Position numbers and translations under genes: made by a program
Shown here: positions 45,874 to 50,057 of the stretch, in pieces
How positions within the stretch are numbered: position 1 is the stretch's first letter
Layout of the letters: each line of letters opens with the position of its first letter
Notes under the pieces: generated by a model
Told to the model about the DNA's origin: nothing
The model's database searches: none
The model's input: the letters and a program-made list of their open reading frames with translations, nothing else
Assembly: GCF_013122565.1 (NCBI RefSeq)
Contig: NZ_CP053258.1
Source: Escherichia coli
Lineage (GTDB): Bacteria; Pseudomonadota; Gammaproteobacteria; Enterobacterales; Enterobacteriaceae
Direction: 5' to 3' (one strand)
DNA: 64,000 nucleotides

Positions 45874-46569
45874 ATGCGACTTGATAAATTTATCGCACAG
45901 CAACTCGGCGTTAGCCGTGCTATTGCCGGGCGTGAAATCCGCGGCAATCGTGTCACCGTCGATGGCGAAATCGTTCGTAATGCAGCGTTCAAACTGCTTC
46001 CTGAACATGATGTCGCTTACGATGGCAACCCGCTGGCGCAGCAACACGGGCCACGTTACTTCATGCTCAATAAGCCTCAGGGCTATGTTTGCTCCACGGA
46101 CGACCCTGATCACCCAACGGTGCTCTATTTTCTGGATGAACCGGTAGCCTGGAAACTGCACGCCGCAGGACGTCTGGATATCGATACCACCGGTCTGGTG
46201 CTGATGACTGATGATGGTCAGTGGTCGCACCGCATTACTTCTCCGCGCCATCATTGCGAGAAGACCTATCTGGTGACGCTGGAATCACCCGTAGCTGACG
46301 ATACGGCAGAGCAATTTGCTAAAGGCGTGCAGCTGCATAACGAAAAAGATCTCACTAAGCCGGCGGTGCTGGAAGTGATTACCCCAACGCAGGTTCGTCT
46401 GACCATCAGCGAAGGGCGTTATCATCAGGTGAAACGCATGTTCGCCGCCGTGGGTAACCATGTGGTTGAGCTGCATCGTGAACGTATTGGCGGCATTACG
46501 CTGGATGCTGATTTAGCCCCCGGTGAATATCGTCCGTTAACTGAAGAAGAAATTGCCAGCGTCGTCTAA
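45874..46569 (+). CDS. rsuA: 16S rRNA pseudouridine(516) synthase RsuA, 231 aa
   Basis: [23 protein letters not shown]4 domain; start trimmed from track ORF. Confidence 0.93.
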
Positions 46570-46596
46570 CTTTTCAATGACTTTCAGGAGCCCGTT

Positions 46597-47787
46597 GTGA
46601 CCACCCGACAGCATTCGTCGTTTGCTATTGTTTTTATCCTTGGCCTGCTGGCCATGTTGATGCCGCTGTCGATTGATATGTATCTGCCCGCGCTACCGGT
46701 AATTTCAGCGCAGTTTGGCGTACCGGCGGGCAGTACGCAGATGACCCTCAGTACTTATATTCTGGGCTTTGCGTTGGGGCAGTTAATCTACGGGCCGATG
46801 GCAGACAGCTTCGGACGTAAGCCGGTGGTTCTTGGCGGTACGCTGGTGTTTGCCGCCGCCGCGGTGGCGTGTGCGTTGGCACAAACCATCGATCAGCTGA
46901 TTGTGATGCGTTTCTTCCACGGGCTGGCGGCGGCTGCGGCCAGCGTGGTTATCAACGCCTTGATGCGTGATATCTACCCGAAAGAAGAGTTCTCGCGGAT
47001 GATGTCGTTTGTCATGCTGGTGACAACCATTGCACCGCTGATGGCACCGATAGTTGGCGGCTGGGTGCTGGTGTGGCTGAGCTGGCATTACATCTTCTGG
47101 ATCCTCGCCGTGGCGGCGATTCTGGCTTCGGCAATGATCTTCTTTCTGATCAAAGAAACCTTACCACCGGAGCGTCGCCAGCCTTTTCACATTCGTACCA
47201 CTATTGGTAACTTTGCGGCGCTGTTCCGTCATAAGCGTGTCCTGAGTTATATGCTGGCCAGCGGTTTCAGCTTTGCCGGAATGTTCTCGTTCCTGAGCGC
47301 CGGACCGTTTGTCTACATTGAAATCAACCACGTTGCACCGGAAAACTTTGGTTATTACTTTGCGCTAAACATTGTTTTTCTGTTCGTGATGACCATCTTT
47401 AACAGCCGCTTTGTTCGCCGCATTGGCGCGTTAAATATGTTCCGCTCGGGGTTGTGGATACAGTTTATTATGGCGGCGTGGATGGTCATCAGTGCGCTGC
47501 TGGGGCTGGGATTCTGGTCGCTGGTGGTTGGCGTTGCGGCGTTTGTAGGCTGCGTGTCGATGGTGTCATCCAATGCGATGGCGGTCATTCTTGATGAGTT
47601 TCCCCATATGGCGGGAACGGCATCTTCGCTGGCAGGAACCTTCCGTTTTGGCATAGGGGCAATTGTTGGCGCATTGCTTTCTCTTGCGACCTTTAACTCT
47701 GCATGGCCGATGATTTGGTCAATTGCATTCTGCGCAACCAGCTCCATTCTCTTCTGTCTGTACGCCAGTCGACCGAAAAAACGGTGA
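46597..47787 (+). CDS. bcr: MFS efflux transporter Bcr (bicyclomycin/multidrug), 396 aa
   Basis: 396-aa 12-TM ORF, GTG start, immediately after rsuA. Confidence 0.93.
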
Positions 47788-47799
47788 TCTATTGCACAA

Positions 47800-47827
47800 C
47801 GAGGAAGCTAAAAGGCTTCCTTTGTTG
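47800..47827 (+). terminator. intrinsic terminator after bcr (ggaagctaaaaggcttcc + tttgtt)
   Basis: hairpin plus T-rich tail. Confidence 0.7.
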
Positions 47828-48119
47828 ATGCATGTCAACCACAAATCCATCATTCCCCCGATATATGTTTATTTTATGTAAAATCAATTTATGTAAAAAG
47901 TCACATCATTGTAGTTAAAAAGGTTGAGTTAGATCGCAGAAACGGGTACATATAGCCCCGCAAACGTGACCACGCCCGCAGATATTACTTAAATCAGAGC
48001 CATAGAGGCCACGCAGGCGAGGCATCAATCTTTACGATCTGTATAAAGACGGATTGTTGATGATGTGTTAAAATTGATGTAAACAAATTGTGAAGTAAAT
48101 GTGCTTCCGGGGAAAATAA

Positions 48120-48464
48120 GTGACTTCATTACAACTCTCAATCGTCCATCGTCTACCGCAGAACTTTCGCTGGTCTGCTGGTTTCGCAGGTTCGAAGGTT
48201 GAACCGATTCCGCAAAATGGACCGTGCGGTGACAACAGCCTGGTGGCGCTTAAATTGCTTAGCCCGGATGGTGATAATGCATGGTCGGTGATGTACAAAC
48301 TAAGCCAGGCGTTAAGCGACATCGAAGTTCCATGTTCGGTGCTGGAGTGTGAAGGTGAGCCGTGCCTGTTTGTAAATCGCCAGGACGAGTTTGCTGCAAC
48401 ATGCCGATTGAAAAATTTTGGTGTGGCAATTGCCGAACCCTTTTCAAACTACAATCCTTTTTAA
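48120..48464 (+). CDS. yejG: uncharacterized protein YejG, 114 aa
   Basis: 114-aa ORF (GTG start) between bcr and yejF. Confidence 0.85.
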
Positions 48465-48467
48465 GCG

Positions 48468-50057
48468 TCAGCTCAACGCCAGTAGCTGACGCGTATACTC
48501 CTGCTGCGGTGCGGCAAACACGCGCGCGCACGGTCCTTGTTCCACTACTTCCCCTTGTCGCAGTACGATAACCTGATGACATAACGCGCGGACAACGTGC
48601 AAATCGTGGCTGATAAACAAATAGGCCAGTTGATGCTTTTGTTGCAATGATTTCAATAGCGTCAATATTTGCGCCTGTACCGTTTTGTCGAGTGATGATG
48701 TCGGTTCATCAAGTATGATCAGCGAGGGCTTAAGAATTAATGCCCTGGCAATCGCAATACGTTGTCGCTGACCACCAGAGAACTCCGCCGGATAACGGTG
48801 GCGTGTTTCAGGATCTAATCCCACTTCATGCATCACGGCTATCACTTGTTGTTCGCGTTGTGCGGCAGAAAGCGTCGGCTGGTGAACCCGTAAGCCTTCC
48901 TCAATAATTTGCAAAACGTTGAGTCGTGGGTTGAGCGAGGAGTTTGGATCCTGAAATACCACCTGAATGCGATGACGAATAGGTAACAGCTGGCGGCGAT
49001 TTAAATTTTGCAGTGGCTGACCGTCAAAGATGATGCTGCCCTGAGAATTAATCAGTCGCAGCAGCGCCAGTCCCGTCGTGCTTTTCCCGGAACCGGACTC
49101 GCCCACTAAACCCAGTGTTTCACCCGCTCGTAGCGTAAAACTGATGTTTTTCACCACCACATTATGATCCACAATGCGCTTCAAAATCCCTTTGCGAATG
49201 GGGAAGGCAACCTGAAGCTGTTCAACATCCAGCAACGTTGAGGCAGGTTCTGGCAACGGCACCGGGTCGCCTGACGGTTCACTGTTGAGTAGCTTTTGTG
49301 TGTAAGGATGAGTGGGTGAGGCAAATAGCGTAGCGGCGTTATTTTGCTCGACACAGCGACCGTTTTGCATTACCGCCACGCGGTGGGCCAGTTTTCTGAC
49401 AATGCTGAGGTTATGAGTAATAAACAGCATGCCCATATTCAGCTCGCCTTGCAGTTCGCGCAACAGCTGTAAAATCTGCGCCTGGACAGAGACGTCCAGT
49501 GCGGTGGTCGGTTCATCGGCAATTAATAATTCCGGTCGCGTTAACAGCGCCATCGCAATCATCACCCGCTGGCGTTCGCCGCCGGAGAGCTGATGCGGAT
49601 AATCTGTCAGCCGTTTTGCCGCCTGGCGGATACCGACGCGATCAAGGCAGTTAAGAATTTCGCCACGAGCCGCTTCCCGACGCATCCCGCGGTGGAGTGA
49701 AAGCACTTCATAAAGCTGTTTTTCCAGGGTATGCAATGGATTTAATGACACCATCGGCTCCTGAAAAATCATGGCGATCTTATTACCGCGTACACCGCGC
49801 AACGTTTGATCGCTGGCATGAAGCAGCGATTCGCCATGAAAACGAATATCGCCGGAGAGATATTCAACCGGCGGGGAAGGGAGCAGGCGTAAAATTGACA
49901 GCGCGGTAACGCTTTTGCCTGAACCTGACTCACCCACCAGCGCCAGCGTTTCGCCAGCCTCAATCTGTAGTGAAACATCATTGACTACTGTACGTACGGT
50001 TTGCTGATGGCGAAAACCCACCGACAAATTTTCAATCGCTAACAGAGTTTGCGTCAT
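48468..50057 (-). CDS. yejF: ABC transporter ATP-binding protein YejF (double ATPase; microcin C / peptide uptake), 529 aa
   Basis: two Walker A motifs (GESGSGKS x2), start at [13 protein letters not shown]. Confidence 0.93.

Follow-up and report, generated by a model that had tools for sequence, protein, structure and literature searches.

The 332-bp gap between bcr and yejG (positions 47788 to 48119 of the window, which is the whole 64,000-nt stretch of Escherichia coli DNA analyzed here) is best read, with a probability of about 0.85, as the 3′ end of the bcr transcription unit followed by a compound, oxygen-responsive promoter region from which yejG is expressed in air and repressed by ArcA. 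The gap owes its length mainly to an additional promoter, located 120 bp upstream of the proximal one, together with a pair of multi-repeat ArcA operators and a box of the CRP/FNR type. The mapping of the yejG promoters and ArcA operators is already published at genome scale. According to this literature, RNA polymerase occupies both promoters, P1 and P2, in air, and yejG is made. Without oxygen, phosphorylated ArcA sits on the repeats across P1, with polymerase occupancy reduced ∼26-fold and yejG mRNA ∼4-fold, and deletion of arcA raises yejG ∼12-fold. A distal ArcA site, a CRP-like site, and the FNR-type box may add further inputs at P2. From 5′ to 3′, the proposed order is the bcr terminator, the CRP/FNR-type palindrome, a spacer of fixed length, block A (three ArcA repeats, a possible CRP site, and the weak P2), a poorly conserved leader of ∼90 nt, the P1 block under a four-repeat ArcA operator, and the ribosome-binding site with the GTG start. 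The features are as follows.

47797 to 47827, + strand: intrinsic terminator hairpin of bcr, from folding and its presence in relatives
47825 to 47838, no strand assigned: FNR-type palindrome TTGATGCATGTCAA, one mismatch from the consensus TTGAT-N4-ATCAA, overlapping the terminator tail
47839 to 47864, no strand assigned: fixed-length spacer from the box to block A, 27 to 28 nt in 65 species, information content near zero
47865 to 47957, + strand: block A, 93 near-invariant bp with the P2 core promoter and, upstream of it, the distal ArcA site
47865 to 47895, + strand: distal ArcA site "yejG2," three direct repeats with 11-bp spacing, ATGTTTATTTTATGTAAAATCAATTTATGTA (Park 2013, Tables S1, S2, and S4)
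47890 to 47905, no strand assigned: CRP-like site TATGTAAAAAGTCACA, one half of which (TCACA, 47901 to 47905) is perfect, with its center at −62.5 from P2, read from the sequence
47924 to 47960, + strand: distal promoter P2, with −35 TTGAGT (47924 to 47929), a 17-nt spacer, −10 TACATA (47947 to 47952), and start G at 47960 (±1), from primer extension
47961 to 48045, + strand: variable part of the P2 leader, 50% GC
48054 to 48097, + strand: proximal ArcA operator "yejG1," four direct repeats with 11-bp spacing, −26 to +18 of P1 (Park 2013, Tables S1, S3, S4, and S6)
48057 to 48092, + strand: proximal promoter cluster P1, from primer extension and 5′-RACE-seq
48109 to 48122, + strand: yejG Shine-Dalgarno sequence GGGGAA (48109 to 48114) and GTG start (48120 to 48122), from the sequence and in agreement with the K-12 annotation

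Both ends of the gap are set by genes on the + strand. The bcr reading frame ends with a TGA stop at 47785 to 47787 in the open reading frame list as well as in the K-12 annotation, and yejG, encoding a protein of 114 amino acids (Pfam YejG, PF13989; E = 1.7e-50), has its GTG start codon at 48120. rsuA lies on the + strand as well, and yejF converges from the − strand. E. coli K-12 MG1655 has identical genes and an equal gap length (the reverse-strand span of bcr begins at 2278570 and yejG ends at 2278237); three positions within the gap differ from the window, and the MG1655 RefSeq annotation has no feature between bcr and yejG. The region is single copy in 5425 of 5426 complete E. coli genomes. 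Neither the open reading frame list nor a small-ORF check gave a convincing reading frame in the gap, so the ∼330-bp noncoding interval proposed by the first-pass annotation stands. The gap has an overall GC content of 38.6%, compared to 51.3% for the whole window. Only the two promoter blocks are GC poor, at 29% and 32%, and the DNA separating them has a GC content of 50%. The first-pass annotation went too far in calling the gap long for a simple promoter. Other gaps within the same 50 kb of K-12 measure 422, 411, 367, and 319 bp, and the 332-bp gap is longish yet not unusual, although there is indeed more than one simple promoter inside. Downstream, the stops of yejG (48462 to 48464) and yejF (48468 to 48470, − strand) are convergent and 3 nt apart, so that the two transcripts must either overlap at their 3′ ends or use common termination signals. 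Excludons, neighboring genes with overlapping transcription, are the subject of a 2025 paper that reportedly mentions yejG. Within the yejG coding sequence, GTTGAACCGATTCCGC at 48198 to 48213 resembles a Cra box; it is a predicted operator-like motif in a GalR study, and a Cra ChIP-exo study found an intragenic Cra binding site in yejG.

The existence of two promoters rests on published start sites. Old K-12 coordinates (U00096.2) were converted as window position = 48120 − (X − 2276259), where X is the K-12 position, and the conversion was verified against sequences printed in two supplements. The dPeak paper reported two sigma-70 binding events upstream of yejG, each confirmed by primer extension, with the P1 start at 2,276,299 (window 48080) and the P2 start at 2,276,419 (window 47960), a distance of 120 bp. 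The 5′-RACE-seq data in the supplement of Kim 2012 place yejG starts at 48081 and 48092, giving 5′ untranslated regions (UTRs) of 39 and 28 nt; P2 is not in this set, which is a point against the two-promoter reading. The start sites lie at suitable distances from −10 elements. For instance, the extended −10 of P1, TGTTAAAAT (48066 to 48074; TGn-TAAAAT), lies 6 to 7 nt upstream of the 48080/48081 start, and an overlapping promoter consisting of TTGATG (48057 to 48062), 17 nt, and TAAACA (48080 to 48085) has its start G at 48092, 7 nt downstream. The P2 start is 8 nt downstream of its −10. All three are poor matches to the sigma-70 consensus and fall below the scan threshold, which also counts against two promoters. 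A consensus promoter/terminator scan, the check that had been proposed, indeed called neither P1 nor P2, nor the bcr terminator. The promoters were missed because the scan is too strict for such weak elements, and we therefore relied on the published start sites and on direct folding, which does show the bcr hairpin. As in the other tandem-promoter regions of the dPeak study (spr/mepS, dcuA, and aroL), two sigma-70 events upstream of one gene, here ∼120 bp apart, were both confirmed by primer extension. There is no difference to note, the yejG locus being one of that study's own validation cases. A SELEX peak for the RpoH holoenzyme at ∼47927 raised the question of whether P2 might be a canonical sigma-32 promoter. 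The idea was dropped after a by-eye check, as neither the spacing nor the CCCC in the −10 fits.

The control of these promoters by oxygen is documented in several data sets. Published ArcA site sequences were located in the window at 47865 to 47895 and 48054 to 48097, both made of TGTTA-like repeats 11 bp apart from center to center. In the Park 2013 data, the proximal site has a ChIP peak enrichment of ∼8 and an ArcA box of 18.8 bits, whereas the distal site has a ChIP-seq peak enrichment of 1.9 and a box of 17.6 bits. The same study found yejG to be up 11.9-fold in an arcA mutant, with both ChIP-seq and ChIP-chip peaks, and listed it among 85 directly ArcA-regulated operons with reduced anaerobic sigma-70 occupancy. 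Consistent values come from Myers 2013, where sigma-70 ChIP occupancy was 1462 in air versus 56 without oxygen (∼26-fold) and yejG mRNA was 4.0-fold higher in air. Mutation of arcA likewise raises yejG expression in Salmonella, where an ArcA box is predicted at the homologue of the P1 site. The locus thus resembles the ArcA-repressed aerobic promoters icdA, acs, astC, and sdhC (Park 2013), with which it shares three to four TGTTA-like repeats at 11-bp spacing, an operator that overlaps the promoter (−26 to +18), strong repression, and loss of sigma-70 without oxygen. It differs from this class in two ways. First, yejG has no known role in carbon oxidation. Second, it has another, weaker ArcA site ∼190 bp upstream that does not overlap P2. 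That distal site, at −95 to −65 from P2, is not at a typical repressor position and its peak is weak, both of which count against the main reading. Looping through phased spacing of the two ArcA sites was considered and dropped; across species, block A and P1 are between 181 and 209 bp apart, and these distances show no clear helical phasing. By-eye readings of the repeats at 47866 to 47897 as PhoP, OmpR, or CpxR sites were also abandoned, the published ArcA ChIP-seq site being an exact match. In a Shigella phoPQ mutant, yejG is up 2.7- to 3.9-fold, from which no site can be assigned. Induction of yejG has been reported as acid specific.

Comparison among relatives shows where selection has acted. 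A scan for YejG gave 80 Enterobacteriaceae loci, in which the bcr-yejG-yejF order is kept throughout. The comparison set consisted of the 74 loci with both gap ends definable; the gap is mostly 308 to 343 bp in these, and identity was measured against the window. Identity over the 74 species was as follows.

Terminator and spacer: 0.58
Block A (47866 to 47957): 0.91
P2 leader (47958 to 48045): 0.40, the lowest in the gap
P1/ribosome-binding-site block: 0.75
yejG and bcr codon positions 1, 2, and 3: 0.86 to 0.88, 0.92 to 0.94, and 0.54 to 0.56, respectively

Some trends were apparent. First, the cores of the ArcA repeats change little or not at all between genera; for example, TGTTT (47866 to 47870) and TGTAAA (47877 to 47882) are invariant in the 74 species. 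Second, the same is true of the core promoters. The TTG of the P2 −35 and TACATATA in its −10 region (47947 to 47954) are invariant in the 74 species, the P1 core TGTGTTAA is nearly so, and CTTCCGGGG at the ribosome-binding site of yejG is conserved. Third, the leader can be lost while its flanks are kept. An extreme example is Enterobacter sp. ENT03 (L032), where the gap is 220 bp and the leader is wholly lost; in the E. asburiae group (L066 to L068 and L070), the gaps are 277 to 279 bp and the leader is mostly lost. Block A and the P1 block are retained in all of these despite the deletion. As conservation peaks on promoters and operators and collapses in the leader, selection is on the promoters and operators and not on the transcribed leader. 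The suggested conservation analysis yielded a pair of conserved blocks that coincide with the promoters and ArcA sites, but no conserved RNA structure, as detailed below. As a side observation, a CTGATAAATRAG-like motif in the leader is common to non-Escherichia loci (L038, L043, L052, L055, L059, L060, L065, L069, L072, and L073) and is not in the window; in some of these loci it is flanked by short complementary arms (CCAC/GTGG and CCCT/AGGG).

The first-pass annotation had suggested that the gap might hold a regulatory leader or a small RNA (sRNA). A leader does exist, in that P2 gives yejG a leader of ∼160 nt with a poorly conserved segment of ∼90 nt, and there are published reports of an RNA. 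Two later papers credit Raghavan, Groisman and Ochman 2011 (Genome Res 21:1487) with listing a novel sRNA from the "yejG-bcr" spacer. In one of them, a tiling-array transcript overlaps this sRNA; the supplement of the tiling-array paper has no yejG entry. The other, an Hfq coimmunoprecipitation study, refers to the same sRNA as "5′ UTR-yejG" and has an Hfq-enriched interval over it; the name implies the yejG strand and the P2 leader. The variable part of the P2 leader is the likely source of the reported "5′ UTR-yejG" or "yejG-bcr" candidate, and the "sRNA" is probably a fragment of that leader, either stable or truncated, and not an independent regulator. That the gap instead encodes an independent, Hfq-binding sRNA acting in trans would agree with the report as relayed by the two later papers, with the overlapping tiling-array transcript and Hfq-enriched interval, and with P2 as a possible promoter. 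However, there is no intrinsic terminator between P2 and yejG, and with an identity of 0.40 the leader shows no conserved seed and is lost in some Enterobacter. It also has no consensus structure, no Rfam family, and no entry in the K-12 RefSeq annotation. Many mRNA 5′ UTRs coimmunoprecipitate with Hfq, and for this reason Hfq enrichment is no proof of a trans-acting RNA. We consider an independent trans-acting sRNA unlikely on this evidence. The yejG RNA differs from established Hfq-dependent sRNAs in having no terminator, conserved seed, or conserved structure, and it resembles 5′ UTR-derived, Hfq-associated fragments, with an Hfq-enriched interval over a 5′ UTR that was earlier listed as an sRNA.

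Folding of the leader points the same way. Folded together with the start of yejG, the P2 leader reaches −36.8 kcal/mol compared to −37.2 kcal/mol for shuffled sequences (z = +0.1), and RNAalifold on the leader of 31 species gave 0 consensus pairs, although the segment aligns poorly and very small local hairpins could be missed. No relevant match was found in Rfam 15 for 46500 to 49500 at E ≤ 10, the chance-level hits being to eukaryotic lncRNA and snoRNA models and to DicF inside bcr. A scan for terminator-like sites in 47840 to 48119 found none on either strand, and the P2 leader contains no leader peptide. These results bear on the idea that yejG is controlled in cis by a structured leader in the P2 transcript, for example a riboswitch, attenuator, or thermosensor. 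The leader length of ∼160 nt, a local hairpin at ∼48034 to 48057 in the E. coli leader fold, a z of −1.8 for the first 101 nt, and the acid-specific response of yejG would all suit such an element. Against it stand the z of the whole leader, the empty 31-species alignment fold, the negative Rfam, terminator, and leader peptide searches, and the deletion of the leader in Enterobacter sp. ENT03, which together make it very improbable. Because the leader is unconserved and unstructured, has no Rfam match or terminator, and is deleted in some Enterobacter, neither a conserved riboswitch-like leader nor a conserved trans-acting sRNA in the gap is supported.

At the upstream end of the gap, the hairpin at 47797 to 47827 is the intrinsic terminator of bcr. 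It folds at −16.4 kcal/mol (z = −5.2; 0 of 200 shuffles were as stable), with a core stem of 47802 to 47808 paired with 47815 to 47821 and a TAAAAG loop. The hairpin that had been placed at 47803 to 47820 is therefore real and agrees with this core stem. The U tract in the window, CTTTGTTG, is weak and U poor, whereas many relatives have a longer one of 5 to 6 T's. At this position, most of the 74 other species also have a GC-rich hairpin with a T-rich tail behind it, and the folding energy is −12 to −24 kcal/mol in most species. The stems themselves differ, for instance GGAAGC/GCTTCC, GGGGGC/GCCCCC, and AGGCCC/GGGCCT. This means that the structure rather than the sequence of the terminator is conserved; judged from the stem sequences rather than a formal pair count, the hairpin appears to have been kept by compensatory changes.

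The FNR-type box that overlaps the terminator tail is conserved in a different manner. Its arms have two or fewer mismatches in ∼65 of 75 sequences and are perfect in many, for instance in Citrobacter and Klebsiella, and the central 4 nt vary. Conserved arms and spacing with a drifting center and spacer indicate a protein site that is used, which, as far as the alignment goes, argues for use under some condition and not for a chance match. The other strand of 47825 to 47838, TTGACATGCATCAA, is a predicted FNR site in Table S6 of Myers 2013 (PatSer score of 14.14); it has no FNR ChIP-seq peak in K-12 in the condition of that study and overlaps Fis enrichment. In these respects it is like the "silent" high-scoring FNR motifs masked by nucleoid proteins described in that study, but here the arms and spacing are conserved across ∼65 species. 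A box that is conserved yet unbound in K-12 counts against the main reading. It is conceivable that the TTGAT-N4-ATCAA box has an alternative reader in YeiL, the third CRP/FNR-family regulator of E. coli; yeiL (K-12 2255355 to 2256014; L084) is ∼22 kb from yejG.

Alternatively, the box could drive a third, anaerobic class II promoter, P3, starting at ∼47873, with block A conserved as the 5′ end of the P3 transcript and the distal ArcA site lying over the start. The conserved arms with a free center and the 27- to 28-nt distance to block A suit this arrangement, as does the geometry. The box is centered at 47831.5, −41.5 from such a start, and the ArcA site at 47865 to 47895 would then overlap a promoter, its typical position. 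In addition, Shimada 2014 reported an RNAP-sigma70 SELEX peak in the bcr/yejG spacer, assigned to a "constitutive" promoter in which TTGATG is paired, over 17 nt, with a predicted −10 TATCAT. In the window, position 47848 is C where K-12 has T, giving CATCAT (47848 to 47853) instead of TATCAT and hence a weaker −10 for the promoter that Shimada 2014 assigned. P3 is nevertheless quite improbable. K-12 shows no FNR ChIP-seq peak, and sigma-70 occupancy without oxygen, instead of rising, is ∼26-fold lower. There is no conserved −10 hexamer at the required position, the spacer having an information content of ∼0, neither strand of block A folds into an RNA structure, and no start site near 47873 is reported in the 5′-RACE-seq set of Kim 2012.

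The strong conservation of block A invites other explanations. One is that it encodes a small protein, MFILCKINLCKKSHHCS (47865 to 47918), as the conserved block contains an ATG-initiated frame of 17 codons with an identical peptide in 23 of 75 sequences. But the ATG is present in only 39 of the 75, the rest having TTG, and many species have premature stops (3 to 14 amino acids) or read-through (29 to 30 amino acids). Furthermore, there is no Shine-Dalgarno sequence upstream, substitutions number 180, 108, and 123 at the first, second, and third codon positions, which is no excess at the third, and conservation extends 40 bp beyond the stop codon. The frame was rejected as a gene on this start, Shine-Dalgarno, frame, and substitution evidence, and we hold a coding role to be extremely unlikely. 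Block A as a structured RNA was likewise rejected, its folding being no better than that of shuffles on either strand (z ∼0).

With ArcA-repressed promoters as the preferred reading, part of block A is left over. About 60 bp (47896 to 47923 and the P2 spacer) are almost invariant in the 74 species, including GTC at 47900 to 47902, which is invariant, and none of the published binding sites accounts for the invariant 47896 to 47946; this counts against the main reading. The P2 spacer, TAGATCGCAGAAACGGG, contains a GATC site and is almost invariant together with the 28 bp upstream of the −35. From its sequence, TATGTAAAAAGTCACA may be a CRP site and is a candidate for this conserved part; a CRP genomic-SELEX target list includes yejG, without site coordinates. 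The segment from the FNR-type box to the P2 −10 (47825 to 47957) is of fixed length and near-invariant sequence in about 65 to 74 Enterobacteriaceae species. Tentatively, and with more doubt than confidence, we suggest that this rigid module, which known sites do not fully explain, may be a platform for an uncharacterized regulatory complex. Its reader could possibly be FNR or another CRP/FNR-family protein, such as YeiL, in conditions not yet sampled, or else an acid-responsive regulator of yejG.

For annotation, these results mean that the gap is an ordinary, mapped control region that is not worth following up as a novel RNA element, and beyond a tidy annotation they have little significance. 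That YejG is aerobic, ArcA repressed, and acid induced could help to frame experiments on this protein. The FNR box, "silent" in the ChIP-seq data for K-12 but conserved across genera, may be of interest to specialists in enterobacterial transcription. Block A amounts to 93 bp of promoter DNA as conserved as second codon positions, and if the tentative reading of the module were true, the small protein YejG would be under an unusually tightly conserved control switch.
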